The notes beneath the pieces are model-generated. The model saw nothing but the letters and a program-made list of their open reading frames with translations, ran no database searches and was not told the origin of the DNA. This document shows positions 626-31,120 of a stretch of 64,000 bases of DNA, in pieces. The translations under genes were made by a program, and so were the position numbers. Within the stretch, counting starts at the first letter, position 1. Each line of letters opens with the position of its first letter. Source of the DNA: an uncultured Candidatus Saccharibacteria bacterium (lineage in GTDB: Bacteria; Patescibacteriota; Saccharimonadia; Saccharimonadales; AWTP1-31); assembly GCA_964409615.1 (NCBI GenBank), contig CAYPDT010000001.1, forward strand, positions 142,629-206,628. Direction: 5' to 3'.

Positions 626-646
626 TTCCAAGGTGCGACCTTGGAA
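626..646. repeat. Intergenic palindrome family, copy 1: TTCCAAGGTGCGACCTTGGAA (one mismatched pair next to the centre)
   Basis: Read directly. Lies in the divergent region between trhO (start 565) and the ABC exporter (start 886). Flanked upstream by ACCCCTGTTG (586-595) and ACACCATATTTT (608-619), which also flank copy 4. Confidence 0.8.
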
Positions 647-885
647 ATCATATGTTACTTTATTTACAACAATATGGTATCTGTTTGTGAATATGTGTTA
701 CACTTTTAAGCAATATCATTTAACGGAAAGGGCGGCCACAACCACCATGTCGGAACCAACAACTATCTCTTCGGTCGCCCACATTGCGACACGCTAGACG
801 GTCGGAATTGTAAAAAACCTAAAATAAACCTGTTCGATATATAATTACATTTTAATAAGCGATGAGGCCAAGGAGGCTCAATCGC

Positions 886-2679
886 ATGAAAACTCAACCT
901 ACTATTGGCCCTATGGCCACACTTCGCCTGTATTGGCAAAGCGCTCTCAAATTTAAAAAACCCATGGCTTTGGTGTATGGTTTAATGCCAGTTGCTCAAA
1001 TTGCCGAAGAAACTATCTCGCCACTGCTAGTTGCTTCTATTTTGAATAAGCTGGCTTCGGGACGCTTCGATGAACTTACTAGTGAAAAGGTATTGCCTGT
1101 TATCGGCATCATTATCGCCATTGAACTGTTTTCACATTTTCTTTGGATTACCATTGTTCGTATTTTTTGGCGCTGGCAAGAAAACGTTATGCGCGACTTA
1201 GCCGAACGGTCGTCTGATCATCTGTCGACCATGAGCTACCGTTTCTTTAGTGACCGGTTTGCCGGATCGCTAGTGAACCAAGTTAGTAAATTTTCTGGCT
1301 CATTCGAGCGCCTAACCGATTCTATGACATGGAATGTCTACAAGTTAGTAATTGGTGCAGTTGCTACCTGTGTGGTTTTACTACCAAAGGCACCGATAGT
1401 TGTAGCCGGCATAATCGGTATTGCAACTATCTACATTCCTACCGTCTGGTACTTCCGTAAAAAGCAGGTGCCCTTTAACAAACGTTGGGCACAAGCCGAA
1501 ACACATCGCACTGGGCAACTTGCTGATTACGTTGGCAACATTATTGCCGTAAAGTCATTCAGCAATGAAAAGCTCGAAAAGAAGCTGATCCGCAAACGAT
1601 TCGATGAGGTGTTTGATAGATCAATAGACACCATGCGTTTAAACATGAATCAAGAATTGGTCAGTGGTGTCATACAGCGTAGCTTGAATGTGTTCGTGAT
1701 TGGATTCTCCATCTGGTTGGCAACAACTGGCCGAATAGAAGTTGGGGTCATCTACCTATCGCTCGAGTACACTCGTGCTATTCTGCGACGTCTTTGGGAT
1801 CTTAACAGTACATTCCGCAACATCACCCGTGTGTTTGGTGATGCACACGATATGACCGAAATCTTGCAAATCACACCAGAAGTAAAAGACCCTATTGAAC
1901 CGGAAACACCACAGATAACCGATGGCGCCATCGCCTTCAATCAAGTGACATTCCGCTACGAGGGCGACAAGTCGAAGACCAAAACTAAAACCTTGTTCAG
2001 TAATCTTGCACTCGATATTAAACCAGGTGAAAAGATTGGTTTAGTTGGTCCAAGTGGTGGCGGTAAGACCACTATTACAAAGTTGCTGCTTCGATTCATG
2101 GATATTCAAGACGGTAGCATAACCATTGACGGTCAAGATATTGCTGCCATCAGCCAGCAAGACTTGCGTAGTTACATAGCCTACGTATCGCAAGAGCCGA
2201 TTCTGTTCCATCGCAGTCTGTACGATAACATTCGTTATGGAAAACTTGGCGCTACAAAGCAAGAAGTCTTGGCAGCTGCCCGACACGCTCATGCTGACGA
2301 ATTCATCGGCAGCCTGCCGGAAGGCTATGAAACACTGGTGGGTGAACGCGGTGTCAAATTAAGCGGTGGGCAACGCCAACGAATTGCCATCGCCCGTGCC
2401 ATGCTGAAAGATGCACCCATTTTGGTGCTCGATGAAGCCACAAGTGCCCTAGACAGTGAAAGTGAAGTTCTGATTCAGGACGCACTCTGGAAACTCATGG
2501 AATCTAAAACAGCATTAGTCATAGCTCATCGGCTGAGCACCATTCAGAAAATGGACCGCATCATTGTGCTAGACAAGGGTTCTATTGTAGAGCAAGGAAC
2601 ACACACCGAGCTCATCAATCAAAAAGGTGTCTACGCCAAGCTCTGGGCGCATCAATCAGGCGGCTTCTTAGAGGATTAA
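886..2679 (+). CDS. ABC exporter, fused permease/ATPase (MsbA/multidrug type), subunit 1
   Basis: TM domain plus NBD with Walker A GPSGGGKTT, signature LSGGQRQR, Walker B ILVLDEATS and H-loop AHRLST. Start moved from 862 to ATG 886, which follows AAGGAGG at 873-879. Confidence 0.9.
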   Translation: MKTQPTIGPMATLRLYWQSALKFKKPMALVYGLMPVAQIAEETISPLLVASILNKLASGRFDELTSEKVLPVIGIIIAIELFSHFLWITIVRIFWRWQENVMRDLAERSSDHLSTMSYRFFSDRFAGSLVNQVSKFSGSFERLTDSMTWNVYKLVIGAVATCVVLLPKAPIVVAGIIGIATIYIPTVWYFRKKQVPFNKRWAQAETHRTGQLADYVGNIIAVKSFSNEKLEKKLIRKRFDEVFDRSIDTMRLNMNQELVSGVIQRSLNVFVIGFSIWLATTGRIEVGVIYLSLEYTRAILRRLWDLNSTFRNITRVFGDAHDMTEILQITPEVKDPIEPETPQITDGAIAFNQVTFRYEGDKSKTKTKTLFSNLALDIKPGEKIGLVGPSGGGKTTITKLLLRFMDIQDGSITIDGQDIAAISQQDLRSYIAYVSQEPILFHRSLYDNIRYGKLGATKQEVLAAARHAHADEFIGSLPEGYETLVGERGVKLSGGQRQRIAIARAMLKDAPILVLDEATSALDSESEVLIQDALWKLMESKTALVIAHRLSTIQKMDRIIVLDKGSIVEQGTHTELINQKGVYAKLWAHQSGGFLED

Positions 2680-2699
2680 GCAGGAGGTACCCCTCCTGC
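2680..2699 (+). other. Stem-loop GCAGGAGG-TACC-CCTCCTGC immediately after the ABC-1 stop codon
   Basis: Perfect 8-bp stem with a 4-nt loop, read directly. No U-tract follows, so it is more likely an intra-operon stabiliser or attenuator than a full terminator. Confidence 0.35.
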
Positions 2700-2765
2700 T
2701 CCCCTGGAGCATTATCTGTAACGGCGTAGTATACTGTTAAAAACTAGTTCTGCTTTTATTTTTAT

Positions 2766-4550
2766 ATGAACACACGGCAACAACGCATCCGCGACAAACA
2801 GACCACGCGCAGCATCCATCGGCTGTTCTGGCGAGCCATGACTAACAACAAGAAGTACTTTATTGTTACAGTCCTGCTCCATGCTCCCGCTTTTGGTATT
2901 ACACACGTGGCCATACCGCTACAGGTTGCCTATGGTATCCAAGCAATCCTCACAAAAAACTTTGCAGCCGTTCCACATTACGCCATTGTCATAATGCTAT
3001 TAGCAGTTAGCTACAACGTATTGCTTGGCTTTGCCACCTGGGCATTTAACCGTGATGGTGTTGAAGGTGCTAGCTATGTGCAAAAACAAATTTTTAGTAA
3101 TTATCTTTCGAAAGACTATGAATTTTACAGCAACACCTATGTTGGGGCGCTGGGAGCGCAAGCCTCTCGTATGCGAGATGCTTTTATCGACTATAATCGC
3201 ATTACCCTCTTCGACATCCCAAAAAGTGCCGTTATTATAATCGCTGGGCTGGGCGTTATTGCCTCAAAATCTATCCTTTTGGCTTTGGTGACCGCTGGCT
3301 GCATGCTGCTGGTGCTAAGCTATACCATCATAACCAGTCAACTTCGTCTTAAGTACCGGCGCTTGGTGAGCGAAGCTAGCAGCCACTTGTCTGGTGTTAT
3401 TGGCGATGCGCTTGGGCACGGTGCAACAGTCAAGAGTTTCGCAACTGAAGAGTATGAAGCTAAGCGACTTGAAGCACCACTTAGTGCTTGGCGTAAAGCT
3501 CAGCTGCAATCGTGGGACCTGTTTACTCCAGCCAACACCGGGCGCAACCTGCTTAATGCCTTCACGACCTGCGCATTACTTATCTTAACTTCACGTATGT
3601 ATCAGCAAGGTACAATAACCATCGCAATTGTTACTTTGGTTCAGTTATACGCCGTTAAGTTGGTTGGCGTAACATTAGACATTGCCGAAATTATTAAATC
3701 CTACGAAACAGTTATGGGCTCAGCTTACGAGCCAATGGTCACTATGAATATTCGACCTAGCGTTCGAGATACCGAAACGCCGCAAAAGATTATATCCCCC
3801 GTCAAACATCTGACTTTCGATGCCGTAACCTTTCAATACCCAGACAATGCTGCCGATATCCATGCCATCGACACACTATCCTTTCAGGTTAAGCAGGGTG
3901 AAAAAATTGGTATAGTCGGTCGTTCTGGAAGTGGCAAAACTACACTCACCAAGTTACTGTTACGCTTTATGGATGTCAGTGATGGCAGTATACAAATTAA
4001 TGGGATTGATATTCGTAATATCACCCAGCATGATCTTCGTAATCTCATCGCCTACGTTCCGCAAGAACCACTCCTGTTCCATCGGACTGTATTAGAAAAT
4101 ATCGCGTATGCTGCACCCAAAAAATCTACAGAGGATGTTGCCGAAGCCGCCAAGCTTGCGCGGGTAGATGCTTTTGTAGAAGACTTGCCAAACGGTTATC
4201 AAACACTTGTTGGCGAACGAGGCGTTAAACTAAGTGGCGGACAGCGCCAGCGCATTGCAATAGCGCGTGCCATACTTCGCGACGCTCCAATCTTGGTACT
4301 CGACGAAGCCACCAGCTCGCTCGACAGCGAAAGCGAACAATTCATTCAGGATGCATTTGATAACTTAATGAAGCACCGTACTACTATTGTTATCGCGCAC
4401 CGGCTCAGCACAATCCAGAAAATGGACCGCATATTGGTAGTTGATAAAGGCAGCGTCATCGAGCAAGGTAGCCACGTCGAGCTACTCAAACATAAAGGTC
4501 TCTACGCCAAACTCTGGGCTCACCAATCTGGCGGATTTATAGAAGAATAG
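2766..4550 (+). CDS. ABC exporter, fused permease/ATPase, subunit 2 (probable heterodimer partner)
   Basis: Walker A GRSGSGKTT, LSGGQRQR, ILVLDEATS, AHRLST. Same architecture as the upstream paralog. Both nucleotide-binding sites look canonical. Confidence 0.9.
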   Translation: MNTRQQRIRDKQTTRSIHRLFWRAMTNNKKYFIVTVLLHAPAFGITHVAIPLQVAYGIQAILTKNFAAVPHYAIVIMLLAVSYNVLLGFATWAFNRDGVEGASYVQKQIFSNYLSKDYEFYSNTYVGALGAQASRMRDAFIDYNRITLFDIPKSAVIIIAGLGVIASKSILLALVTAGCMLLVLSYTIITSQLRLKYRRLVSEASSHLSGVIGDALGHGATVKSFATEEYEAKRLEAPLSAWRKAQLQSWDLFTPANTGRNLLNAFTTCALLILTSRMYQQGTITIAIVTLVQLYAVKLVGVTLDIAEIIKSYETVMGSAYEPMVTMNIRPSVRDTETPQKIISPVKHLTFDAVTFQYPDNAADIHAIDTLSFQVKQGEKIGIVGRSGSGKTTLTKLLLRFMDVSDGSIQINGIDIRNITQHDLRNLIAYVPQEPLLFHRTVLENIAYAAPKKSTEDVAEAAKLARVDAFVEDLPNGYQTLVGERGVKLSGGQRQRIAIARAILRDAPILVLDEATSSLDSESEQFIQDAFDNLMKHRTTIVIAHRLSTIQKMDRILVVDKGSVIEQGSHVELLKHKGLYAKLWAHQSGGFIEE

Positions 4551-4592
4551 TTACAGAACACAAAACAGCTTGGGCATTTTAGCTTGTAGGCT

Positions 4593-5168
4593 CTAGGCAG
4601 CTGCATCTAAATCTGAACGCGTAGGCAAAAAGCGTACTGCAGATTCTACAAGACGACGTCCTCTATGGAGCCTAAGGCCCTGCATAAGTGTGCCTAAGGT
4701 TGGCACCTCGATAGTATGAATACCAACAGCCTGTGCATTTGCGATATCGCGCCTGGCATCATGGCCAATCATTACCACGCTGGTTGGGTCGGCATTAAGT
4801 TCATTAATAATTCGCTCATAAAAGGCTGGAGTCGCCTTGGTCACTACTCGTTTACCAGCTAGAAACGGACCGAAAATATGGTCGGCATGGCTGCGTATCC
4901 CAGACAAAGCTCCAACAAAAGGATTGTCGCTCGCCATCCCAAAGCCAGCAATATGCCCAATGTCACGTGCTTCACAAATACTGGTACGAACTTCAGGTAG
5001 TACAGGGTTTGTCGCAAAGGCGACAGCTTGATCATAGTCAAATAAGACAGTCGGAGGTTGGCCAACTTCTTCACAAAGCATTTGCCAATTAATATCTATA
5101 ACAGAATCCGCCCTAAAGCTTAGTGGAAAACCAACTGGCTCTTTGGGCGATTCTGTATGGTGTGACAT
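4593..5168 (-). CDS. HAD-superfamily-like hydrolase (weak)
   Basis: Motif I-like LFDYDQA, and a C-terminal motif IV-like MIGHDARRDIANAQAVG. The motifs are degenerate. Confidence 0.4.
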   Translation of the reverse strand: MSHHTESPKEPVGFPLSFRADSVIDINWQMLCEEVGQPPTVLFDYDQAVAFATNPVLPEVRTSICEARDIGHIAGFGMASDNPFVGALSGIRSHADHIFGPFLAGKRVVTKATPAFYERIINELNADPTSVVMIGHDARRDIANAQAVGIHTIEVPTLGTLMQGLRLHRGRRLVESAVRFLPTRSDLDAAA

Positions 5169-5199
5169 ATGTATTAGAATTTACGAAATAATCAGTAGA

Positions 5200-5868
5200 C
5201 TATTCAGCAGTTTTTTCAGCTTCTGCTGATTTGTCGTCGCCACCGTTTGCGGCAGGAACTGCGGAGGCATCCGCATCTTCTGCCTCAGCCTCTTCAGACA
5301 TTTGTGCTTTTGTCTCTTCGACAGTAGCAATGGCGTGCTCGGCCTCAGTGATAATTGTGACACCAGCAGGTACTTTCAGGTCAGCAACAGCTAGTTTGTC
5401 GCCAATCTCTGTCAGGCTGCTTGGGTCTATTATTATCTCATCGATTAAGTCTTTTGGCAAGGCTTCTATTTCGATTACATCGAGGTTGCGAATAACCATC
5501 AGGCCAGCTTTTTCTGCTGGAATCTCTACATCTTCCGCAAAGTGTACTGGCACTTCGGTTTGCTGTTTCTCATCAGCCTTAATAGCGTTAAAAACAACAT
5601 GGCGAATCATATGTTTGCGCGGCTCAAAATCAACATCTTTGATGAGTGCCATGTACTTTTTAGAACCAACCGTTAGGTTAACGGGGTGGTGCTTGCCAGC
5701 AGCATTAAATACTTTTAACAAGTCGGTATATGGCGCCATTACATGCAGCGACTCCTTACCATGGTCGTGTATTACGGCTGGAACATTTCCTTCACGGCGG
5801 ATTTTTCCAAGCCCCTTGCCTAATACTTCACGTTTCTCGAGCGTTACAGCGATTGTTTCGCTAGTCAT
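5200..5868 (-). CDS. rplY: 50S ribosomal protein L25 / general stress protein Ctc, with an acidic C-terminal tail
   Basis: N-terminus LEKREVLGKGLGKIRREGNVPAVIHDHGKESLHV...HHPVNLTV is typical of long-form L25/Ctc. Confidence 0.85.
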   Translation of the reverse strand: MTSETIAVTLEKREVLGKGLGKIRREGNVPAVIHDHGKESLHVMAPYTDLLKVFNAAGKHHPVNLTVGSKKYMALIKDVDFEPRKHMIRHVVFNAIKADEKQQTEVPVHFAEDVEIPAEKAGLMVIRNLDVIEIEALPKDLIDEIIIDPSSLTEIGDKLAVADLKVPAGVTIITEAEHAIATVEETKAQMSEEAEAEDADASAVPAANGGDDKSAEAEKTAE

Positions 5869-5961
5869 TCCGGTTACCCTCCGTCATTCAACAATTAGTA
5901 CTGCTTATTATATCAGAGACAAACACCGCTAACGTTGTTGAATCTACCAATAACGAACTAT

Positions 5962-6702
5962 TTAGCCGCTCGTTGCAAATTCTTTTCGCAATGAATCTTT
6001 TTTACTGTCGTCGACTACAGCGCGGGTGGCATTGAAAAGAGGTAAGTATAAAGAGTTTGGTGTCGTAGCTACCAATTGTCGTATTCGAGGCACTGCGAAT
6101 CGCAGAATTCTTAATTGGTTCGCCTTGGTTGGCTCAACGCGGGTTAGTCGGTTTCCAAAGTCCTGTGCCAGGTCAACAGCACTATCTACCACAATCCCCA
6201 CTTGCATAAGCACCTGCAGCCACTGGTTAAATCTATCCTCTGTGCCGGTTTGATTTTCAATCTCAAACAATCGAGCGGTTTGTACGCCCTCGAACAATGC
6301 GAGTCGCCCTAATGCATGCGGATGAAAGGCCATACGACGCGTTAGGGCAATTTCTTTTATCGCCATAGTAGCGTCAATCACACGAGTTGTTTTTTCTGCA
6401 GACCAATCGCGCGCTAAAGCCTGCATATTGCTCGTTAGCCCGTTATATTGTGCATCAGCATTGTCTAATGGCGCCATGAATAGTCGTGCAACTTCTGCAT
6501 CGTATGACTCTTCTCGTTCAACCTGAGGAGCTTGCCCATCCAGAATGTCATCAAGATTACGACATGCTGCAAGCATGGCTTGCCACTCGTTGCTCTGATC
6601 ATCCGACACATACAGGCCAAACTTATCTGCTGCCGTTGCAAATATCTCTGCACCCCTACTATAGGTATGTAGTTGCGGGTCCTCTAATGCACTACTGGCC
6701 AA
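5962..6702 (-). CDS. Squalene/phytoene-synthase-like (head-to-head trans-isoprenyl diphosphate synthase fold) protein
   Basis: First Asp-rich motif AMLAACRNLDDILDG (compare A.YA.CR..DD..D in CrtB/CrtM). Second motif GIVVDSAVDLAQDFGNRL (compare LRDVGEDF.N.R). Overlaps the upstream gene by 11 nt. Confidence 0.45.
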   Translation of the reverse strand: MASSALEDPQLHTYSRGAEIFATAADKFGLYVSDDQSNEWQAMLAACRNLDDILDGQAPQVEREESYDAEVARLFMAPLDNADAQYNGLTSNMQALARDWSAEKTTRVIDATMAIKEIALTRRMAFHPHALGRLALFEGVQTARLFEIENQTGTEDRFNQWLQVLMQVGIVVDSAVDLAQDFGNRLTRVEPTKANQLRILRFAVPRIRQLVATTPNSLYLPLFNATRAVVDDSKKDSLRKEFATSG

Positions 6703-7498
6703 AACGTTCTCCCGTAACTTTATGTGCTAGTTGCATCGCAATTCTCCCGGCATGGCTGCTGGTTGTGCTAGCAAAAAGCTGCAAGGTATTGCCGAGAACT
6801 CGCAGGTCTTCACCTACAGAAGCCTTTTCAAGTATATAGGTTGACTCTAGTTCAATTCTTTGACGCAATAAATCGTCTGGATCTCCCTCTAATTCGTAAC
6901 CGTGGTGCAGGTTACTGAATTCATCGAATATTCCAGGTAAGGCTAATGAGCGAACTTTAATCCATTCATCGGCTTCTTTTGCGCCGATAAGATGGTGAAC
7001 CTTTTCTAAGTAAAGACCTAGTAGTGGTCGTGGTCCAATAATAGACATTTCCCTCTTGGCAACGTTTGCCAATTGTAAAGATTCATCAATACGCAGCAGG
7101 CTCAAGACTTGTCCAAGAGGGCTCCTACATGGGTCATCGTGCCGACCATTACTGTGTGTATCCTCAGAGGCACCAGGCATAGTTGTTAGTTTGAAAATAG
7201 TAAACGGCTCACCATCTACTCCAATCCTTCTTTGTTTGAAGACGGGTCGTTCGTGATCAATATATTTCACAGCGAGAGCACCTGCGGCTGTCGGGATGGC
7301 GGTTATCGGCAAAACTCCTAGCCCTAAAAGGGCATCAAGAGCAGCTTTTTGTGGACTGCGTAGATAGTCCCTGCCCACCGGCATGTTTGCTGGGTCCCAC
7401 AATTGAGGTTCGGCCAATAACCCTCTCAGAGCGCCATAGTCTTGTTTTTTTCTAATCATTATTGCTTTGTAGTCTACCGCATCAGCAGAGTAATGCAA
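6692..7498 (-). CDS. Polyprenyl-phosphate sugar-phosphate transferase (bacterial sugar transferase family)
   Basis: One TM helix, then PVFKQRRIGVDGEPFTIFKLTTM and MSIIGPRPLL, the family signatures. TTG start as given in the track; an internal ATG (MIRKK) is also possible. Confidence 0.7.
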   Translation of the reverse strand: MHYSADAVDYKAIMIRKKQDYGALRGLLAEPQLWDPANMPVGRDYLRSPQKAALDALLGLGVLPITAIPTAAGALAVKYIDHERPVFKQRRIGVDGEPFTIFKLTTMPGASEDTHSNGRHDDPCRSPLGQVLSLLRIDESLQLANVAKREMSIIGPRPLLGLYLEKVHHLIGAKEADEWIKVRSLALPGIFDEFSNLHHGYELEGDPDDLLRQRIELESTYILEKASVGEDLRVLGNTLQLFASTTSSHAGRIAMQLAHKVTGERFGQ

Positions 7499-7519
7499 GC
7501 ATAACCAAAAATCATATTT

Positions 7520-7538
7520 TCCAAGGTCCGACCTTGGA
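7520..7538. repeat. Intergenic palindrome family, copy 2: TCCAAGGTCCGACCTTGGA (perfect, 19 nt)
   Basis: Read directly. Lies in the divergent region between the sugar-transferase operon (start 7498) and dedA (7554). Confidence 0.8.
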
Positions 7539-7553
7539 CAGTGACTATACGTT

Positions 7554-8234
7554 ATGTGCAGAATCGGTTACTATATATTGGTGTTTGACATAGAGCAAAT
7601 TATTTCAGCTGGTGGCATTTTGCTCGTTTCGTTAATTGTCTTTGCTGAATCTGGTTTATTGATTGGTTTCTTCCTTCCGGGAGACACTTTACTCTTTGGT
7701 GCAGGCCTAGCTGCGAGCCAGGGCAAATTCTCACTTTTTTGGCTAATTTTCTTTGTAGTGATTGCTGCAGTTATTGGTGATAATGTTGGCTACAGCATTG
7801 GTCGCCGTGCCGGACCGCGAATTTTTAAGAAAAAAGACGGCATCCTTTTCAGACAAGAATACATTCAAAAAGCCGAAGAATTCTATTCAGCCCACGGCGG
7901 TAAGACCATTATCATGGCTCGCTTCACCCCTATTGTTCGCACATTCGCTCCGGTAGTTGCGGGTGCGAGTAAGATGCCTCGTCAAAAGTTCTTAGTGTAT
8001 AACATCATTGGTGGTATTTTGTGGGGCGCTGGTTTGCCAGTACTAGGGTATGCACTGGGCAGCCGCATTCCACACCTTGATCATTACATCGAAAAAGTTA
8101 TTATCGGTGTTATGGTTCTGAGCCTATTATTAGCCTTTGTACATCTGCTAAAAGATAGAAAGACGCGAACCTTGATGCTCAACGGAATCAAAGCTCAAGC
8201 GCGCAAGCTTCTGCTGAACAAACGCGTCGACTAG
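7554..8234 (+). CDS. DedA/SNARE-associated family membrane protein
   Basis: FAESGLLIGFFLPGDTLLFGAG plus the multi-TM layout typical of DedA. Confidence 0.85.
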   Translation: MCRIGYYILVFDIEQIISAGGILLVSLIVFAESGLLIGFFLPGDTLLFGAGLAASQGKFSLFWLIFFVVIAAVIGDNVGYSIGRRAGPRIFKKKDGILFRQEYIQKAEEFYSAHGGKTIIMARFTPIVRTFAPVVAGASKMPRQKFLVYNIIGGILWGAGLPVLGYALGSRIPHLDHYIEKVIIGVMVLSLLLAFVHLLKDRKTRTLMLNGIKAQARKLLLNKRVD

Positions 8235-8713
8235 GCAAAGCTATTTGGGTCATTTCGAGCTGCAACTGTCTGTGCGGTAATAAATGTAATCAACGCATTG
8301 CAAGGTTTTTGTGGTCCAGTGTAGTGCATTGATTCTAGCGTAAAATCGTCTGGCAAAATAACGTCAAATTGATGATCTTCGGCCGGCTGGTAATCATAGT
8401 CAAAAAGCTCTTGGTATGGTATTTCTGTAATGAATTCTCTAATGAGTGCACCAAAAATATTTGCATGTCTTGCGACTAAAAGTTCACCTATTGGCTGGTA
8501 GTAACTTCGGAGAATGCGGCTTTTTTGAGCTTCGGTAGCAAGAGGGTCTAACACGGCAGCTTCAGGAGTCTCGAACTCACCGACCGGCCACTGAAAATTT
8601 CCGGCATTATCGGTATCAACAAGCTTCATTTTTGCATGGTGAAGCCATGGGAAACGAATAGCGTGAAATGATCGCACGAGAGCAACGCGCTCATTATATA
8701 AAACGTTACTCAA
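8231..8713 (-). CDS. Hypothetical protein (160 aa)
   Basis: ORF lies 27 nt downstream of the HExxH protein gene on the same strand. No motif recognised. Confidence 0.5.
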   Translation of the reverse strand: MSNVLYNERVALVRSFHAIRFPWLHHAKMKLVDTDNAGNFQWPVGEFETPEAAVLDPLATEAQKSRILRSYYQPIGELLVARHANIFGALIREFITEIPYQELFDYDYQPAEDHQFDVILPDDFTLESMHYTGPQKPCNALITFITAQTVAARNDPNSFA

Positions 8714-8740
8714 AAATTACTCCCCTCATAATGCCAGTTC

Positions 8741-9574
8741 TTACCAGCATATAAAATTGTTACGTGGGATTTCTAAACCATTTGTAACCATCGGCCGGTA
8801 GCTTGGCGAAGCTGCGTCAACATCATATGCAGAACGCTCTAATGGTGATTCTTCATGCCAGGTCTCAACACGTCGTTTGGTTTCATTATCTATATATTTT
8901 GTTGCTCGTTGGCCCCCATAAACTGCACCAGCAATACCGAAACCCGAGACCAAGAGCCCGTGCATGTCATTTCTCTCCATACCCAAAAGCGCAGTCAGAC
9001 CGCCAGTAGCTACTAAGCCTACTACCATATTTTCCACTCGAGACTTCCCTTTTTCACAAAAAGTTCTGTACCGTTGCTGTTGTCTCATCATACGAAGGTT
9101 ATAGAAGTCAACAGCATGCTTCAATTCATGTAAAAGTATTACATCCATCTCAGCTGACGAACTTAATGTATATCCCTCAAAAGTCTCAGGAGTCATCGTG
9201 GTGGCGACTTCGTCCCCTGCTTGTCTCGCTACAAAATCAAATGCCCGTGAGAAGCCTATGCACTGCGCTAATCCCAGCTGAATAATTACCCTTTTCTCTT
9301 CAGCAACATTGTCCGCTCTACCGAATATATAATGCTGGCCCTCTAGTTGTGCTCCCTCCAGATTTGTGTTGGATGGCACAATTTCACCAATAGTGATGTC
9401 AACGTCGGGCAGAAGCCTGGATACACCATCTGATAATGTATGCATATTCGCTACTACTGCATCAGTATCGATGTCTGGGCGCGGCGCTAAACCACGGCTG
9501 ATTAAATCTTCAGCGAAAAAGTCATAGTTAATAGTAACGCGCGGAGCTTCTCCTGCAGACACAATTGTATTCAT
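8741..9574 (-). CDS. Hypothetical membrane protein with a zincin-like HExxH motif
   Basis: ILLHELKHAVDF (HExxH) in the soluble N-domain, followed by two Gly-rich TM segments (VVGLVATGGLTALLG, LLVSGFGIAGAVYGG). Confidence 0.5.
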   Translation of the reverse strand: MNTIVSAGEAPRVTINYDFFAEDLISRGLAPRPDIDTDAVVANMHTLSDGVSRLLPDVDITIGEIVPSNTNLEGAQLEGQHYIFGRADNVAEEKRVIIQLGLAQCIGFSRAFDFVARQAGDEVATTMTPETFEGYTLSSSAEMDVILLHELKHAVDFYNLRMMRQQQRYRTFCEKGKSRVENMVVGLVATGGLTALLGMERNDMHGLLVSGFGIAGAVYGGQRATKYIDNETKRRVETWHEESPLERSAYDVDAASPSYRPMVTNGLEIPRNNFICW

Positions 9575-9580
9575 TAAAAA

Positions 9581-12394
9581 CTATTTTAACATTTTTTTGA
9601 GGAATTGGCCAGTATAAGACTCTTTGACCTTCGCTACATCTCGTGGCGTGCCCTCGGCAACAACCTGGCCGCCACCAGAACCACCCTCGGGGCCCATATC
9701 GATAATATGGTCAGCCGATTTAATAACATCCAGATTATGCTCAATGACCACCATACTATTTCCAGTATTAACTAACGCATTTAAGACTTGTAGTAGTTTG
9801 GCCACATCAGCAATGTGGAGGCCGGTGGTTGGCTCGTCAAGTATATAGAGCGTTCGGCCTGTTGGGCGACGAGATAACTCGGTAGCCAGTTTAATGCGCT
9901 GGGCCTCACCACCACTCAAGGTTGTTGCTGGTTGGCCAAGACCGATATAGCCAAGACCGACGTCTACAAGGGTTTGTAGCTTGCGGGCGATAGAAGGAAT
10001 ATTGCTGAAGAACTCTAAAGCTTGCTCGCAGGTCATCTCTAGAACATCACTAATAGTCTTGCCTTTGTAGTGAATCTCAAGGGCTTCGCGGTTATAGCGC
10101 TTGCCATGACAAACTTCACACGCAACATACACATCGGGCAAAAAGTGCATTTCTATCTTGATAATGCCGTCGCCAGCACAGTTTTCACAGCGCCCGCCCT
10201 TAACATTGAAGCTAAAGCGACCAGCACTATAGCCCCGCAGCTTAGCTTCGGGCACACTGGCAAACAGTTCACGTATTGGTGTGAACAATCCGGTGTAGGT
10301 TGCTGGATTGCTTCGTGGAGTTCGACCGATTGCAGACTGGTCAATTATTATCACTTTGTCTAGATGGTCGATGCCCTTAATCTCGTCGTGCTTACCGGGT
10401 ACAGAATTGGCTCGCATCAGCCGAGCCGAAAGTTCTTTGGCAAGAATGTCATTGATAAGACTTGATTTACCAGAACCCGACACGCCGCTCACCACAACCA
10501 ACTTACCAAGCGGAATTTCAACCGTAACATTTTGCAAGTTGTTTTCGCGTGCGTTAACAATAGTCAATGACTTATCGTTGCCCTTGCGATATTTGGTTGG
10601 TGGTTTGATTTCTTTAGCCCCACGCAAGTACTGGCCGGTTATGCTCTTCTCGGTCTGTGCCACCTCGTCTGGCGTACCAGAAGCAACCACCTCACCGCCA
10701 TGCACTCCGGCACCCGGGCCAATATCGAGCAAGTAGTCAGCCGTACGGATTGTATCTTCATCGTGTTCAACCACAATTACGCTGTTACCAATATCACGGA
10801 GGTGTTTGAGAGTTTTGATTAACCGTTCGTTATCACGCTGGTGCAGGCCAATCGACGGCTCGTCGAGCACGTACAAAACCCCTTGTAACCCAGAACCAAT
10901 TTGGGTTGCCAAACGTATTCGCTGGGCCTCGCCACCGCTCAAAGTTGCAGCGCTGCGAAGCAGGTTTAGATAGTTCAGGCCAACATCCTGCAAGAACTGT
11001 AATCGTGCACAAATTTCTTTAAAAATCATGGCAGCAATGTGCTGCTCTTTATCGTTCAGACTGATGCTGTTGAAATACTTGATCGCTTCATCAATTGATA
11101 GCTCACAAATATCCATAATTGACTTACTACCAACGGTAACAGCCAATACTTCGGGCTTAAGACGTCTACCACCACAGGCATGGCATGGTCGTTCTTGCAT
11201 AAAACGTTCGATGTCTCGGCGTATAAAGTCGCTATCGGTATCTTTGTGACGCCGCTCTAGGTTATTCACAACACCTTCATAGGTAGTATCAAATGTACGA
11301 CCAGAACCAAGCGAAACCGCGTACTTTTCGTTACCAGTGCCATACATCAAAATTTTCATGGCAGCTTCATTTAGCTCGCCAGTTGGAACATGCAAGCTGA
11401 ATCCATGCCGGTCGGCTACTGCTTGCAGTTTTTTCATGTACCAAGCATCTGTATTGATACGATTAAACGGGCGTATCGCACCCTCGGCAATGGTTAACCG
11501 ACCATTCGGTATAACCAGGTCTGGGTCAACCTCTAGGCGTGAGCCAAGGCCAGTACAAACAGGACATGCGCCATGGGGGCTATTAAAACTAAACGTACGA
11601 GGCTCAAGTTCTGGAATACTAATCTCTGGATGGTCAATACACGCGTATTGCAAGCTATAACTATGGCCCGCCTGTTGGTCTGCGTCTATAACTTTAAGCT
11701 TACCGTCAGCCAATTCTAGGGCTTGCTCAACAGATTGAGCTAAACGGCCCCGACTTTCCTCGTTATTAACCAGGCGGTCGACTACAATCTCGATGGTGTG
11801 CTTATACTTTTTATCCAGTTCTGGAAATTCATCTAGGGCGTACACCACGCCATCCACACGAGCACGTGCAAAACCAGCTCGCTGGTACTGCTCGGGGATA
11901 TGTTCGAATGCGCCTTTTTTATCGATTACTACCGGTGCCAAGATAAGCAACCGTGCATCAACCGATTGGCTAGCCACTTGATCAACGATTGCTTGAGTGG
12001 TTTGGCGTTCTACCGCCTTACCACAAACCGGACAGTGTGGCACTCCAATACGCGCAAACAATAAGCGAAGATAGTCATAAATTTCAGTAACCGTCGCCAC
12101 GGTACTTCGGGGATTACGACTGGTAGATTTTTGGTCGATAGAAATTGCCGGACTCAGGCCATCAATCTGGTCAACATCGGGCTTTTCCATGAGGCCAAGA
12201 AATTGTCGAGCATAGCTACTCAGTGACTCTACATAACGGCGCTGACCCTCGGCATAAATGGTATCGAAAGCTAGGCTCGACTTACCAGAACCGCTCAGAC
12301 CAGTAATAACAACCAACTTACCGCGTGGAATACGTACATCCACGTTTTTTAGGTTGTGCTCTCTGGCACCTTTGACATCAATATATCCACTCAT
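9581..12394 (-). CDS. uvrA: Excinuclease ABC subunit A
   Basis: 937 aa. Two ABC modules ([20 protein letters not shown]; two LSGGEAQR signatures) and zinc-finger Cys clusters. N-terminus [13 protein letters not shown]. Confidence 0.97.
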
Positions 12395-12448
12395 CGTGAC
12401 GTATTAGTATACGCGCTTGGCAAGACTTTTTCCAGACCCAAACCTGCT

Positions 12449-13186: not shown

Positions 13187-13269
13187 ATTATAAACCCCAA
13201 TACGTGCATTTGGTGTTGTATTTTAGCAACCTGTATATAGACTTGTGCCGCTACTGTATAATTCATGGA

Positions 13270-14103: not shown

Positions 14104-14124
14104 CATAAGCACTACATAATATTG

Positions 14125-14152
14125 TTGACATTGTTGCAATTAGGTTTATAAT
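14125..14152 (+). promoter_or_regulatory. Sigma70-type promoter TTGACA-16-TATAAT
   Basis: TTGACA at 14125-14130 and TATAAT at 14147-14152, read directly. It sits 29 nt upstream of the small ORF at 14181. Confidence 0.5.
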
Positions 14153-18821: not shown

Positions 18822-18916
18822 TAGTTATATAATACAATTTTTTCTGAAAGTTTACAACCTGTAGCTATGTGATAGAATAGTCAGGTTTGCTTATTAATTT
18901 TACTTAGTCACCGATA

Positions 18917-19651
18917 ATGCCCCACACTTTGGAATCACTAACCATTACCACTGAATTCCCTCTTTTGAGAACTAACGAGGGTCGTCTATTAGACGTCTCT
19001 TCACTTGACCACGATTATCTGCAAGATGGTTTCATAATAGAGGAACAAGATCCGCTGACAGTTATAGTGGAAGATATGCACAAGCTACATAGCCGAATTG
19101 CAGCTGCAATCGTCGGAAGAGTCGGGTTGTTACCGACAGTTCGTTTGGTAAAAGAGTTCGACAGCAAAGCCTTTGGCAATCAAACTGCTCCACACCTCGA
19201 TGGATTTGATTATCGATTTTGGCAAGTAAATACACCTCATGCACCGGGACAAGATGAGTCGTTCAGCCCATTTACTCGTTTGCTGATACGTCGATTTAAT
19301 ATAGATGATGCTGAACACCAGGCTCTTCATAACCGCTACCAGCGCTTACAAAATACGAGCCCCTACGAAAGTATTTGGTTTCACCCGGTTGATTTTGATT
19401 TGCTTGATGACGGTAAAACCGAAAAAGCATTAAACAGGCCGCCAGATGATATGTTCAGTGGCGAGGCCGGCCCTAGTCGGACGTTGGTCTTCCCAAATGG
19501 CTATGACGCATCAGAAGCGAGTGAACCTGGAGTTCTCTACGTACACTCTGCCCACACTGCTCAAGACATGAGCGGAGCTCCATCATCAGCTACTCGCTTG
19601 CTCACCATGAGTCGCATTGAGCCAACTAGCATACCACTAATTACACAATAG
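18917..19651 (+). CDS. Hypothetical protein (244 aa)
   Basis: Clean ORF in a divergent arrangement with obg. No motif recognised. Confidence 0.5.
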   Translation: MPHTLESLTITTEFPLLRTNEGRLLDVSSLDHDYLQDGFIIEEQDPLTVIVEDMHKLHSRIAAAIVGRVGLLPTVRLVKEFDSKAFGNQTAPHLDGFDYRFWQVNTPHAPGQDESFSPFTRLLIRRFNIDDAEHQALHNRYQRLQNTSPYESIWFHPVDFDLLDDGKTEKALNRPPDDMFSGEAGPSRTLVFPNGYDASEASEPGVLYVHSAHTAQDMSGAPSSATRLLTMSRIEPTSIPLITQ

Positions 19652-19701
19652 CAAGTGTCGGCAACAATGACAGGCGGCCAGCAAATCACACAAGTATCTT
19701 A

Positions 19702-20730
19702 CTAATAGATGTACGAGTAGCCGGCAGCGGCATCGGGTGATAGAGTCTTGTAGCTGACTACGCCCCAGCCAGCAACGTTCATCTCGGAAACATGTACTGT
19801 TCCATCTGCGTCTACGGAATCGACATAGCCAACGTGGCCATAGTAGTCGCGTGGCGGTGTCCAGATAACAGCTCCGGCTTGCGGAACACTACCAACAGAG
19901 AACCCAGCTCGTTGTGCTAAGACCTTCCAGGTACTAGCATTACCAAGGTTACTTGGGATTGGACGGCCAGCTTGAGCACGACGATTAGCAGCATACCAGG
20001 TACAATAACCGTAGTCATATCCGTTTGATCCATAGATAGCACCACTGCCACCCCATGCGAATCCACTACCATAACCAGCGGCTGTCGCAACGCGAGGGGT
20101 AACTACCGGCGCCACACTACCATCTCGCAAGAGTAACTTACTACCAATACGCAAGCCCGCGGCATCAATATCATTGTCAGCAATTACCTGCTCTTTGTTT
20201 GCCTTATATTTAGACACAATCGAATCAACGGTATCACCGTCTTTAACTACGTAGACCACACCATTGACTGGAGCAATTAAGATAACTTTGCCGGCGTCAA
20301 TATTGTCGCCCTGCAGGCCATTTGACCATCGAATAGTATCGGAGGTGATATTGAACTTAGCAGCGATACTAGGAATAGTGTCGCCTGCGACGGTTGTATA
20401 GTTACGAATGTCTTTGTAGGATTTTAAGCTCGTAGCTACAACTTGAGGCTTGGCGATTACAGTGTCATCAGATGCTGAAACAGCAAGCTGAGCATTAACA
20501 GTATCTGCTTTGTTAGCTACAGATGGCGCTTCTGTTAAGTTGGTTAGACGGGCTACGTGCACAGCAATATCTGCAGATGAAATCTGGTCAAGGGCACTTG
20601 TAACAGAACTTGTGTCGTTGGCGTTAACAATACTGTTGTTGGCACTTGGGCCCGAGCTTGGGGTTCTTAAGACAAATATAGTTACACCAGCCAACATAAT
20701 AAGGTTAGCTAGTAGAATGCCGTATCGCAC
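19702..20730 (-). CDS. Peptidoglycan hydrolase: N-terminal TM anchor, two LysM domains, C-terminal CHAP domain
   Basis: LysM: YTTVAGDTIPSIAAKFNI and YVVKDGDTVDSIVSKY. CHAP: CTWYAANRR...YGHVGYVDSV. The true start may be a non-canonical ATT at 20844 (see findings). Confidence 0.8.
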   Translation of the reverse strand: MRYGILLANLIMLAGVTIFVLRTPSSGPSANNSIVNANDTSSVTSALDQISSADIAVHVARLTNLTEAPSVANKADTVNAQLAVSASDDTVIAKPQVVATSLKSYKDIRNYTTVAGDTIPSIAAKFNITSDTIRWSNGLQGDNIDAGKVILIAPVNGVVYVVKDGDTVDSIVSKYKANKEQVIADNDIDAAGLRIGSKLLLRDGSVAPVVTPRVATAAGYGSGFAWGGSGAIYGSNGYDYGYCTWYAANRRAQAGRPIPSNLGNASTWKVLAQRAGFSVGSVPQAGAVIWTPPRDYYGHVGYVDSVDADGTVHVSEMNVAGWGVVSYKTLSPDAAAGYSYIY

Positions 20731-21016: not shown

Positions 21017-21055
21017 CAACAAAACCAACACCCACAACAGGGGTGACCCCTGTTG
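21017..21055 (-). terminator. Candidate intrinsic terminator downstream of mltG
   Basis: Minus-strand hairpin CAACAGGGG-UCA-CCCCUGUUG (21055->21035, 9-bp stem), followed by the U-rich tract UGGGUGUUGGUUUUGUUG. Confidence 0.45.
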
Positions 21056-21094
21056 CTAAGAAGTGAATATTATCATACCACACCATATTTTCCC

Positions 21095-21121
21095 TGTTTC
21101 CAAGGTCGGACCTTGGAAACA
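21095..21121. repeat. Intergenic palindrome family, copy 4: TGTTTCCAAGGTCGGACCTTGGAAACA (perfect, 27 nt; centre base inverted relative to copy 3)
   Basis: Read directly. Separated by 11 nt (21122-21132) from the mltG stop codon at 21133-21135. Flanked by ACACCATATTTT (21080-21091) and ACCCCTGTTG (21046-21055), as in copy 1. Confidence 0.85.
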
Positions 21122-21132
21122 TAGTGGGTGGG

Positions 21133-28030: not shown

Positions 28031-28741
28031 CTATTGCGGTAGCTTTGCAAAATGTACGACGTCTAAACTCACATGTTCACCCTGCCTGCCGTCTTCTGGA
28101 TAAGGTAGTCCAAGCGCCACGCCCATGTCGGTATACGTTGGGTTTAGTATATTTCTGAGATGACTGGAGCTATCTGCAAAGCATACAAAGGTTTTAATTT
28201 GGTTCAAATTAGCTTCTTCCGACACGTCGGCAACCCCGATGTTTTCACCGAGCACCTGCCAATCTGGCACAAAACTGCCGGCCGATTCAGTCAACTCAGT
28301 GTGGCGAAATTCATCGCGCTCGGTGAGCTGTAGCGCAGCTTCATGAGATGAAGTTTGTAGATTAGGTTCAAGTGATAGTGGTGATCGATTGTATAAAGCT
28401 CGTAGCTTATTTGTAGCCTCTAACCAACCTTGCGGGGTGGTCATATCTGGAGCGGTAGAGGCATCAATATTTAATTCAAATCCACAAGGATGAGGAATAT
28501 TAGCGGGGCTAGTATTGTCGATGCGCGTTGCGCTATCGGCATGCTCGGCGACAACGGCCATGAAATCGCGACTTTCAGTCAATGGCTGTTCTGTGGCGCT
28601 TGACATGTCATGTGAAAAAACAGATTGGAGCAACATGCCTGCTACGACACTAACAACAAAACCTCTCACCACCTTTTGGGGGGTCAGCTTCACTTCGCCG
28701 GCATGGGCGTGTTGGAATGTATTATGGCGCCGATTAGGCAT
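28031..28741 (-). CDS. Secreted CAP/SCP/PR1-like domain protein
   Basis: N-terminal TM/signal (VVRGFVVSVVAGMLLQSVF). C-terminal SSSHLRNILNPTYTDMGVAL is typical of the CAP (SCP) domain. Confidence 0.6.
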   Translation of the reverse strand: MPNRRHNTFQHAHAGEVKLTPQKVVRGFVVSVVAGMLLQSVFSHDMSSATEQPLTESRDFMAVVAEHADSATRIDNTSPANIPHPCGFELNIDASTAPDMTTPQGWLEATNKLRALYNRSPLSLEPNLQTSSHEAALQLTERDEFRHTELTESAGSFVPDWQVLGENIGVADVSEEANLNQIKTFVCFADSSSHLRNILNPTYTDMGVALGLPYPEDGRQGEHVSLDVVHFAKLPQ

Positions 28742-28876
28742 GTTTGCTCCTTGTACGTATCACGTACATCTATGTACAGAGCAAACTTGAGTTGCAATTC
28801 GCGGTTTCGCCATTAGCTCCACGTAGTCCAGGCGACCAAATACGGTCTACGCTTCAAAGCTGCAATTGCTCTGTAT
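28742..28876 (-). promoter_or_regulatory. Structured 5' leader of the CAP-domain gene with alternative pairings that sequester the Shine-Dalgarno
   Basis: On the RNA there are three segments: X = CAGAGCAA (28873->28866), Y = GUUUGCUCUG (28786->28777), Z = GGAGCAAAC (28750->28742). Y can pair with X or with Z. Z contains the AAGGAG Shine-Dalgarno and abuts the AUG. Confidence 0.45.
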
Positions 28877-29963: not shown

Positions 29964-29979
29964 TGTTAATATTATACCA

Positions 29980-30444
29980 TTAAATTAGTCGTTGCGCCAA
30001 AGCCTGGCTATTCGACTTAAAGAGCTGTTGTAAGCTGAAATCAAACTGTTTTGTGGATGTCCTAATGACGCATCCGCCCGCCAAATTCGGCTGGACTCCA
30101 ACCGATATCAGCGTGTTAGGATGCCCGTTTTCGCGGAACCAACGGATAAGAATTCGGAGAGCACGTTGGCTGGGTTCTGATGCAAAACTAATCTGCACCG
30201 ATGGTGCTGTGCGCCGCACAAATTGCAGCTTCTGGATGAGCTGTTGTCGGTCTTGCGCATGAAGCGGATTGATATCGGCCTGTTTAAGAATTTTATTAAG
30301 TGGCGGGCTCATATACGGCAGCTTACTGGCTGACTTAGAGGCCCCTAGAAATTCATCCAACGCAAACAATTCTCGTTGAATCTTACCCAAGTCGAGGGGA
30401 GTGACGACGGAATCCGGTAACTGTACGCCTGGGTCAGAACTCAC
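29980..30444 (-). CDS. Hypothetical protein with an ATP-synthase-delta/OSCP-like C-terminus
   Basis: C-terminal NLAGGCVIRTSTKQFDFSLQQLF resembles the LIGG.VIR.G...D.S motif of AtpH. No atpA/G/D genes are adjacent. Confidence 0.4.
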   Translation of the reverse strand: MSSDPGVQLPDSVVTPLDLGKIQRELFALDEFLGASKSASKLPYMSPPLNKILKQADINPLHAQDRQQLIQKLQFVRRTAPSVQISFASEPSQRALRILIRWFRENGHPNTLISVGVQPNLAGGCVIRTSTKQFDFSLQQLFKSNSQALAQRLI

Positions 30445-31042
30445 GTTTAATGTCCTCTACAATTGCAGTCTTATTGGCTTCTAGGTTGGTTAGAATAAAC
30501 TTGATTTGATCATCTATTTCTAGATGCGAACCCAGCGTCTGCTGCACGTGATGCGTCACAACATCTGCCATGTTTTGCTGAAAGCGCTCTAGGCGTCGCG
30601 CTTTCTCGATTTTTAGTTCTTTATCAAATTGCTCGCGGACCATCTGCTGATATTCAGAGATTGCCTTATCGATACGTAGAAACGCTTCGTTCATATGCTG
30701 CTGTGCGGCTGCCACAGACTGCTTTTGGTCGGAAAACTCTTCTTTGATAATTTCACCGGCACGCTCTTTGACGTACTCGGTAACCTCTTCACCAATAGAG
30801 TGCAGATCTTGCTGTAAGAATGCCGCATTTTCTTCGAGAGTTCGCTCGAAACGCGCCTCGCCCTTTTCACGGAGGTGTTGACGATACTCTTCGGTAAAAA
30901 GCTCATTGCTCCGGCCACCGCCACCACCACCGCCCCTGACGCGACCGAGACGAATGGCCACCCAAATGAAAGCTAGCAGTACTGCCAGTACACTTCCGAC
31001 CCAGGTCAACAACAGTGCTAGTTGTACGTCCATACCCACCAT
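30434..31042 (-). CDS. Hypothetical membrane-anchored coiled-coil protein (ATP-synthase-b-like architecture)
   Basis: One N-terminal TM, a Gly7 run (RGGGGGGGR), then about 150 aa of charged heptad-like helix. Overlaps the downstream delta-like ORF by 11 nt. Confidence 0.4.
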   Translation of the reverse strand: MVGMDVQLALLLTWVGSVLAVLLAFIWVAIRLGRVRGGGGGGGRSNELFTEEYRQHLREKGEARFERTLEENAAFLQQDLHSIGEEVTEYVKERAGEIIKEEFSDQKQSVAAAQQHMNEAFLRIDKAISEYQQMVREQFDKELKIEKARRLERFQQNMADVVTHHVQQTLGSHLEIDDQIKFILTNLEANKTAIVEDIKREF

Positions 31043-31093
31043 TCAATCTTGCTTATGTATAAAAGTATAGCACGCACTCCCCCGTTCGCTCAT

Positions 31094-31120
31094 ATTTTCC
31101 AAGGTCCGACCTTGGAAAAT
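31094..31120. repeat. Intergenic palindrome family, copy 5: ATTTTCCAAGGTCCGACCTTGGAAAAT (perfect, 27 nt)
   Basis: Read directly. Abuts the cysteine-desulfurase stop codon (31121-31123), and is 51 nt upstream of the start at 31042. Confidence 0.85.

Follow-up and report, generated by a model that had tools for sequence, protein, structure and literature searches.

The 64-kb stretch of DNA analysed here (the window) comes from an uncultured member of the Saccharibacteria, a kinship seen in its TrhO, which is 85% identical to that of the Saccharibacteria metagenome-assembled genome (MAG) L001, and in its MltG, whose named homologues are likewise from Saccharibacteria. Dispersed along it, in the gaps between otherwise ordinary genes, are five near-identical short palindromes. 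Overall, we think it very probable that these are elements of the repetitive extragenic palindrome (REP) type, and that they serve as recognition substrates of an HUH/Y1 transposase, resembling the REP-associated tyrosine transposases (RAYTs), that is encoded elsewhere in this genome. The copies, and the larger units to which some of them belong, lie as follows.

626 to 646 (core 628 to 644), minus strand: REP copy 1, between the divergent trhO-like gene (2 to 568, minus strand) and ABC exporter gene (862 to 2679, plus strand)
Down to about 577, minus strand: tail of copy 1, GAAAAATATGGTGTAATAGG ... AACAGGGG
7520 to 7538 (core 7521 to 7537), minus strand: REP copy 2, with the shortest arms, between a sugar-phosphate transferase gene (6692 to 7498, minus strand) and dedA (7554 to 8234, plus strand)
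15886 to 15912, minus strand: REP copy 3, with perfect 13-nt arms, 2 nt past the stop of the photolyase gene and 48 nt ahead of the sbcB start; its tail reads TTGGAA, 17 nt, TAATAA
21095 to 21121, minus strand: REP copy 4, with perfect 13-nt arms, 11 nt past the mltG stop
21025 to 21132 (108 nt), minus strand: composite unit with copy 4, made up of REP hairpin, promoter-like tail and second hairpin
21037 to 21053, no strand assigned: second palindrome, ACAGGGGTGACCCCTGT, inside the composite unit
31094 to 31120, minus strand: REP copy 5, with perfect 13-nt arms, 0 nt past the stop of a NifS/IscS-like cysteine desulfurase gene and 51 nt ahead of the following minus-strand gene

A scan of the whole window for the pattern CCAAGGTSSGACCTTGG, which can also be written CCAAGGT-SS-GACCTTGG, matched at 628-644, 7521-7537, 15891-15907, 21100-21116 and 31099-31115, against a chance expectation of 0.00 in 100 shuffles; the preliminary description of this DNA had singled out the same five palindromes. 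Allowing up to three mismatches adds a single chance-like site, at 47553, so the family is discrete and has no halo of degenerate relatives. Copy 1 departs from perfect symmetry in one pair only, the innermost (GTG-C-GAC). Folded as single-stranded DNA, each copy is predicted to form a stem of 8-12 bp with a loop of 3 nt (z = -2.7 to -5.5). The orientation is identical across all five, and in every copy the asymmetric flank, CAYATTTT on the plus strand or AAAATRTG on the minus, stands to the same side, as had been noticed at the outset. In copy 2 the AAAATATG flank follows directly on the minus strand, and copies 1 and 4 do have the longer unit in common that had been proposed for them, ACACCATATTTT ... 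ACCCCTGTTG. The sequence after the hairpin is A-rich on both strands and holds no T-run on either, in agreement with the earlier statement that no U-tract follows it.

Although only 5.5% of the window is intergenic, this is where all five copies sit (p ~5e-7). Distances to the surrounding genes are as first described: copies 3, 4 and 5 begin 2, 11 and 0 nt past the stops of phr, mltG and the NifS-like gene (0-11 nt in the original claim), and the next minus-strand start lies 57, 21, 48, 364 and 51 nt downstream of copies 1 to 5 (21-364 nt in the original claim). The neighbours, whose identities had largely been guessed correctly, encode a TrhO-like protein, an MsbA-like ABC exporter, a sugar-phosphate transferase, DedA, SbcB, a class-2 photolyase, a LysM/CHAP hydrolase, MltG and a NifS/IscS-like desulfurase. 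An Rfam scan found no RNA family at any of the palindromes.

The same genome can be followed beyond the window on contig L114, which is 100% identical to window positions 53649-64000 and extends 8.9 kb past the right end. Two further copies lie there, one directly past the pgk stop and one 38 nt past the uvrD stop, and both have the tail and orientation of the window's five; the remark that no copies occur after 31.1 kb thus holds within the window but not beyond it. In the ~73 kb now available, all seven copies point the same way, along the G-rich strand (the plus strand has a negative GC skew throughout), and on the transcribed strand five of the seven start 0-38 nt past a stop codon. The IS200/IS605 elements are known to insert strand-specifically into single-stranded DNA, and the shared orientation fits an insertion of this kind and, equally, co-orientation with transcription. 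Repeats and transposase genes stand at 7 to 0: neither tblastn nor a profile search of the translated six frames detected a RAYT-like gene in the window, and there is none in the ~73 kb. On L114, moreover, an ORF called as Nudix (5072-5641) reads through a REP copy ('...FPRSDLG...'). The start of this ORF is probably over-extended, and REP copies may mislead gene callers in these genomes.

The search of related genomes proposed in the preliminary description places the motif within a narrow range of hosts. Across one genome per species from 185,579 species (GTDB), the 21-mer TTCCAAGGTSSGACCTTGGAA was found in only 19 stretches, 18 of them in MAGs of Patescibacteria, namely Saccharibacteria/Saccharimonadales, Kaiserbacteria, Tagabacteria and one unclassified genome of the candidate phyla radiation (CPR). 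The nineteenth, in a Kyrpidia MAG of 67% GC, is probably a chance match. Copies at Saccharibacteria loci are mostly intergenic, with L008 and L016 as the exceptions; at all Kaiserbacteria and Tagabacteria loci, and at some others, they lie within long ORFs. Coding copies (L003 366-382, L019 3482-3498, L009 5528, L008 2359, L016 5752, L013 4379 and L007 101) use all three reading frames (FQGRTLE, PRSDLG, SKVGPW), and in CPR genomes other than ours the exact palindrome stands in frame within LeuRS, TsaD, GrpE and an M20 peptidase. The LeuRS copy occupies the identical position in two genomes (FQGRTLE and FQGPTLE) whose flanking residues have diverged. The use of three frames suggests that the constraint on coding copies acts at the level of DNA, and a motif kept in coding DNA whatever the frame is not what a promoter-bound operator would be.

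The observation that best explains this distribution is the association of the palindrome with one gene. In two Saccharibacteria (L017 and L018) and in the Tagabacteria genome L002, the exact palindrome of the window lies on both sides of an ORF of 204-243 aa that carries the motifs YYHIYNRGV (YYHxYNRG), CLMPNHFHLL (HUH) and RYIHRNP (RYIHxNP). In other lineages the flanking palindrome differs and both of its arms have changed together, with compensating changes: it reads GTTTCCAAGGAG-C/G-CTCCTTGGAAAC (also CCAAGGAG-S-CTCCTTGG) in L020, CCAGGGTC-C/G-GACCCTGG in L024 and CCARGGTTGGACCTTGG in L026. A metagenome scan with the protein alignment added 80 further loci, 33-61% identical, on contigs for which no taxonomy is given. 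In total, 74 loci had enough flanking DNA for a test that required perfect arms of at least 6 nt. A matching palindrome was present both upstream and downstream of the gene in 34 of the 74, a lower bound under so strict a criterion, and at none of 154 shifted control positions in the same loci. The palindrome sequence is specific to the lineage (for example ACTGTACAAGGTTCAACCTTGTACAGT, CCTGCAGGGCCAGGCCCTGCAGG, AAAGGCCAGGCCTTT and GTAGGAACGGTTCCTAC), and in L030, L042, L057, L061, L064 and L102 two hairpins form a larger palindrome, a doublet resembling the REPINs (REP doublets forming hairpins). A fixed inverted arrangement of the two flanking copies was considered and dropped, their orientation by loop sequence being mixed.

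On long contigs the gene lies among unique housekeeping genes, and no TnpB domain was found among its neighbours on the contigs examined. In L024 and L026 it occupies a syntenic slot between an FtsJ/TlyA-like methyltransferase gene and ychF, with transposases 60% identical and neighbours 56-88% identical, which fits vertical descent; elsewhere its position varies (ruvA/ruvC, obg/sbcB, mnmA/alaS). In L018 the interval from Obg to SbcB, syntenic to the site of copy 3, holds a REP-RAYT-REP unit. The start of the gene itself recalls the repeat: the conserved N-terminus MPSRN, encoded by ATGCCAAGTCGCAA or ATGCCAAGCCGCAA (L018 4310-4325; L017 3755-3770), resembles the REP left arm CCAAGGTCG, and in L002 a full REP overlaps the transposase start codon (MPRSDLG). 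This arm-like start may be a vestigial hairpin at the transposase 5' end.

The RAYT-like gene of many divergent CPR relatives itself contains, in frame, the REP palindrome of its lineage (L028, L035, L037, L038, L040, L045, L047, L059, L072, L075, L086, L103 and L002). Two sites recur, one in a loop after about residue 50 and one just past the RYIHxNP tyrosine motif, and the peptides encoded include 'NLQGQALK' and 'ILPTRPGLEG' in L040 and L072 and 'SLQGPTLQ' in L038. The Saccharibacteria clade of the transposase has no such intragenic REPs. Where they occur, they could reflect self-targeting, autoregulation or tolerated insertion hot spots.

The transposase proteins just described come from relatives, not from the window. 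CLMPNHFH and RY(I/V)HxNP are invariant in the family, Pfam assigns Y1_Tnp ('Transposase IS200 like') at E = 1e-6 to 1e-11, and the sole NCBIfam match is REP_Tyr_transpos (NF047646), the REP-associated tyrosine transposase. The family is widespread in CPR bacteria and comprises at least 7,970 proteins at E < 1e-5 (90% clusters); a profile search of 1.84 billion representatives returned 1,136 clusters at E <= 1e-30 and 15,171 at E <= 1e-10. A PDB search with a single transposase sequence gave no match, and since sequence alone does not reach TnpA-REP, the link to it needed a fold search. An AlphaFold (AF2) model built from 30 homologues (pLDDT 89, pTM 0.86) has as its best match in the PDB 4ER8, the E. 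coli REP-associated tyrosine transposase (TnpA-REP) bound to a REP hairpin, with E = 1.1e-5 over 183 aligned columns, a TM score of 0.66 normalised to the target and an identity of ~11%. The TnpA proteins of IS608, ISDra2 and IS200 rank lower (E = 2e-4 to 3e-3, 130-146 columns). In the TnpA-REP active site, Y115 and N119 lie alongside the HUH histidines H59 and H61 (PMC3479197), and the family studied here likewise has an Asn at +4 after the catalytic Tyr (YIHRN).

The tail of the repeat points to the same gene. Ahead of the L018 and L020 transposase genes, the right arm together with AA forms TTGGAA, followed by 17 nt, TATAAT or TAATAT, 6 nt and ATG, an arrangement that has the sequence of a promoter for a leaderless mRNA. 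Dispersed copies retain TTGGAA, 17 nt and TAATAG, TAATAA or TGGTAT; because this tail matches the 5' region of the transposase gene, they look like copies of the transposase's own 5' end. The preliminary description had remarked on TTGGAA-17-TAATAAT at copy 3 as possible evidence for a regulator. The arrangement is real and recurs at the L018 and L020 transposase 5' ends, but on present sequence comparisons its likeness to a promoter is a property of the repeat and not evidence for a regulator. Similarly, a reading as an activator site, with the TGGTGTAATAGG box ~19 nt past the hairpin as the -10 and the dyad centred near -40, was dropped because the palindrome also lies in frame inside genes and flanks transposase genes; the box is part of the repeat's tail.

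Orthologous sites record both retention and absence of the repeat. L108 and L109, 95% identical to the window in DNA, keep the copy after mltG and the copy between phr and sbcB, and L110 and L111, whose MltG is 70-71% identical, are free of the repeat over 21 and 12.6 kb, respectively. When the spacers between mltG and the LysM/CHAP gene are aligned, the window and L108 carry 108 nt (window 21025-21132) that L110 and L111 lack. This insertion starts directly after the mltG stop and ends before the conserved TTGACA-type promoter of the LysM/CHAP gene, and no target-site duplication is visible at this single site, which argues against a miniature inverted-repeat transposable element (MITE) of the DDE type. 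Within the inserted unit the order is hairpin, tail (AAACAGGGAAAATATGGTGTGGTATGATAAT...) and second palindrome. The stem of the second palindrome is that of palindromes adjoining RAYT genes in L036 and L063; the window holds one full copy of it (ACAGGGGTNACCCCTGT family) and a half copy (ACCCCTGTTGG) near copy 1, at ~577-587. It could be what is left of a second family of REPs, or else the opposite end of a composite element. Copy 1 has an ortholog in L001, between the same two genes and with the same tail. The phr/sbcB copy is altered in L108 and L109, with its centre base flipped and a 9-nt partial left arm (ccaaagttt) duplicated (L108 12917-13025 and L109 9763-9850, against window 15838-15914), a difference that looks like hairpin-mediated template switching or re-insertion.

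What the sequences show is the repeat family, its linkage to and co-variation with the transposase family, the predicted fold of the protein and one orthologous site that is filled in some genomes and empty in others; that the transposase binds, cuts and mobilises the repeats, and that these affect transcripts, is inferred. A general pathway can be sketched by analogy with TnpA-REP and IS200/IS605. The transposase would bind the hairpin in single-stranded DNA, for example on the lagging-strand template, and its catalytic tyrosine would cut near the hairpin foot. The hairpin and a tail of 25-90 nt would then be copied or moved to new, mostly intergenic sites without target duplication, where they would come to rest as stable hairpins just past stop codons. 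Since the tail carries the transposase's 5' region, such insertions might perhaps also act as weak outward promoters.

Several points weigh against the interpretation of these palindromes as REP-type elements with a RAYT-like partner. The ~73 kb of this genome contain no RAYT-like gene, and it is by extension from relatives that a cognate enzyme is assumed here. The GTAG tetranucleotide is a defining feature of REPs (PMC8266576, PMC3479197, PMC3733652), and neither GTAG/CTAC nor CGTC/GACG stands at the stem foot of any copy in the window or flanking a RAYT-like gene. The strict flanking test was passed by only 34 of 74 loci, and the relative orientation of the flanking copies is not fixed (by loop sequence 11 inverted, 10 same and 3 other). 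The proteins score 30-52 bits against the NCBIfam NF047646 cut-off of 80 and so do not pass the RAYT model, and a PDB profile search gives only a weak match, to ISDra2 TnpA (E = 0.01). Finally, the filled and empty genomes at mltG are ~30% diverged in protein, so that a deletion in the relatives is possible instead.

The nearest rival differs from the REP/RAYT interpretation mainly in degree, autonomous as opposed to domesticated: the ~200-aa gene and its two hairpins would be an autonomous IS200/IS605-type element, and the window copies solo ends or deletion derivatives of it, comparable to MITEs or palindrome-associated transposable elements (PATEs). The Pfam assignment, the significant fold matches to IS608, ISDra2 and IS200 TnpA, the often short contigs that carry the gene, and a dispersed tail equal to the gene's 5' end, as for a left-end derivative, would all suit such an element. 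We nonetheless judge it improbable, given that the same hairpin occurs on both sides, whereas the ends of IS200/IS605 elements differ; that the gene has a unique housekeeping context, syntenic across the diverged genomes L024 and L026, and no TnpB nearby; that TnpA-REP gives the best match in fold and aligns over more columns; and that 73 kb of this genome hold at least seven hairpins and no copy of the gene. A primary role in RNA, with the hairpins as non-canonical terminators or 3'-end stabilisers and the transposase link incidental, appears less probable again. E. coli REPs stabilise upstream mRNA and, within 15 nt of a stop codon, reduce translation, and the stable stems of the five copies lying 0-38 nt past stops on the transcribed strand are what such a role would call for. 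It does not account, however, for why unrelated genes should bear the same sequence, why the palindrome flanks the transposase and co-varies with it, or why two copies stand in divergent promoter regions and others in frame within coding DNA; nor is the hairpin followed by a U-tract. An effect on RNA is plausible, by analogy with the E. coli REPs, as a consequence rather than the origin of the family. The specific case of an intrinsic terminator was rejected, the combination of GC-rich hairpin and U-tract being absent and no copy appearing in a terminator scan of positions 1-20000.

The remaining suggestions of the preliminary description fare differently. Its first, that a dimeric transcription factor controls the adjacent minus-strand genes with the palindrome as its operator, draws on the perfect dyad, on the confinement of the window copies to intergenic DNA and on the -35-like TTGGAA box, 17-nt spacer and TAATAA/TAATAG of copies 1 and 3. 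It can now be given almost no weight: there are no degenerate sites, the genes alongside have no function in common, three copies adjoin stop codons, the orthologous promoters of the ~70%-identity relatives L110 and L111 lack the motif, the palindrome lies in frame, in all three frames, in LeuRS, TsaD, GrpE and the M20 peptidase, and its sequence co-varies with the transposase and not with a regulator. Its third, paired DNA-uptake sequences read by the competence machinery, has in its favour a motif present in both coding and intergenic DNA across the CPR, with copies often just past genes. Neisseria DNA uptake sequences (DUS) and Haemophilus uptake signal sequences (USS) occur at a density of ~1 per kb; here there is ~1 copy per 10 kb (7 in 73 kb), none in 33.6 kb of L110 and L111 at ~70% protein identity, an exact motif in only about a dozen species, and a sequence that changes with the transposase lineage. 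Natural competence via ComEC has been demonstrated for Saccharibacteria, and the same study reports no uptake sequence (PMC10633639). We hold the uptake explanation to be as remote as the operator. The second suggestion, a dispersed REP- or MITE-like repeat, survives in its REP form, with palindromes that flank and co-vary with RAYT-like genes, and not as a DDE-type MITE, a candidate rejected on the mltG filled/empty site. A centromere site of the parS/Noc-binding-site (NBS) kind was also dropped: the canonical parS site of ParB, TGTTNCACGTGAAACA, is not matched at up to three mismatches, and the outer TGTTTC...GAAACA of copies 3 and 4 is not found in the other copies.

Beyond the identity of the repeat, a wider and considerably more tentative proposal, possible but rather doubtful as a whole, is that the Patescibacteria possess their own large and old RAYT-like clade (the 1,136 clusters, at 50% identity, with E <= 1e-30), co-evolving with untagged, perfect-stem REPs even in ~1-Mb genomes. 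The repeats would carry the transposase's -35/-10 promoter and so seed promoter-plus-hairpin modules beside housekeeping genes, in several lineages they would be written in frame into essential proteins (LeuRS, TsaD, GrpE), and their presence at two recurrent loops of the transposase would suggest that the hairpin regulates its own enzyme or has been exapted. Copies that lie in frame, whether in essential genes or within the transposase, and the promoter-like tail built into the repeat are the more unusual of our observations, and we regard them as side leads.

Some further features of the region deserve mention. A tmRNA gene (53279-53678, minus strand; Rfam RF00023, 72 bits) is not reported by ARAGORN, and the 64 kb yielded no tRNA genes. 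The only other Rfam hit is a c-di-GMP-II-GAG riboswitch variant (28790-28873, minus strand; RF03169, 46.5 bits against a gathering score of 40), upstream of a gene for a CAP/SCP-domain protein (28031-28741, minus strand). In L017 the interval between mnmA and alaS, syntenic to this riboswitch region, holds a REP-RAYT-REP unit instead. Positions 34111-46634, in the half of the window that has no REP copies, hold a dense cluster of NAD-metabolism genes, mostly on the plus strand, encoding a NadD-like cytidylyltransferase, two NAD-synthase-domain proteins (one with a CN-hydrolase fusion), NAPRTase, an APH-like kinase, a regulator of the NrtR type (Nudix plus winged helix), a nicotinamidase-like isochorismatase and a second Nudix protein.

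REPs and RAYTs have been worked out almost wholly in Proteobacteria, where they influence the structure of genomes, the stability of mRNA and translation; they are also discussed as replicators that persist for long periods and are inherited vertically. In the literature searched, no paper joins REP, RAYT or REPIN with Saccharibacteria, Patescibacteria or CPR, which is not proof of novelty; two broad surveys of the enzyme family make no mention of the Saccharibacteria or Patescibacteria phyla, and the literal palindrome sequence has no match in the literature text. The findings presented here would extend the partnership to streamlined, episymbiotic genomes of ~1 Mb that were expected to be repeat-poor, in a variant without the GTAG tag and with an enzyme clade annotated only as 'transposase'. 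They would explain recurrent CPR palindromes that might otherwise be mistaken for operators, terminators or uptake signals, and they flag likely over-extensions of ORFs through the repeat. Saccharibacteria are now genetically tractable, and the system is thereby open to experiment.

Several known systems invite comparison. The Rickettsia palindromic elements (RPEs) are repeats of 100-150 bp in a reduced genome that can sit in frame in genes, adding a peptide, and have no associated transposase; the present palindromes likewise occur in a reduced genome and sometimes in frame in protein genes, but their coding copies are 17-21 nt long, lie in other CPR lineages and not in the window, and are linked to a transposase. 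DUS and USS are short motifs of naturally competent bacteria, often in inverted pairs after genes, shared across a genus or family and without a transposase link. The present motif is also short, conserved and found in a naturally competent host group, but the uptake sequences of Neisseria and Pasteurellaceae are 10-100 times denser, genus- or family-wide and free of any transposase link, none of which is true here. The IS200/IS605 elements (IS608, ISDra2) have in common with it an HUH-and-tyrosine transposase that recognises hairpins in single-stranded DNA, no target duplication and strand-biased orientation. In our system, by contrast, the flanking hairpins have the same sequence, TnpB is lacking, hairpins appear far more numerous than the gene (7 to 0 in the ~73 kb), and the gene looks vertically inherited.

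The closest known system is the REP/BIME-RAYT partnership (BIME, bacterial interspersed mosaic element), or 'REPtron', with TnpA-REP of groups 2 and 3 in E. coli, Pseudomonas, Stenotrophomonas and Marinomonas, and it is with the working logic of these proteobacterial REPtrons that the present system was compared (PMC5581495, PMC8266576, PMC3479197). In both, short palindromes are dispersed and also stand on either side of a Y1 HUH gene, their sequence is specific to the lineage and co-varies with the enzyme, and the gene has housekeeping neighbours and keeps its place between some species; the fold predicted here is nearest to 4ER8, down to the Asn at +4 from the catalytic Tyr. An excess of repeats over genes, as in the REPtrons, is suggested here by the seven copies and no gene in ~73 kb. 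There are also differences. Stems here are perfect, 8-13 bp long, with a loop of 1-3 nt and no bulge; the protein is ~200 aa long, has a longer C-terminal region, falls below the NCBIfam cut-off and is only ~11% identical to 4ER8; the host has a CPR genome of the ~1-Mb class and is not a proteobacterium; and the unit carries the transposase's promoter-like tail, some lineages having in-frame copies as well. We therefore place the palindromes and their transposase outside RAYT groups 2 and 3 and regard them as a separate variant within this kind of system.

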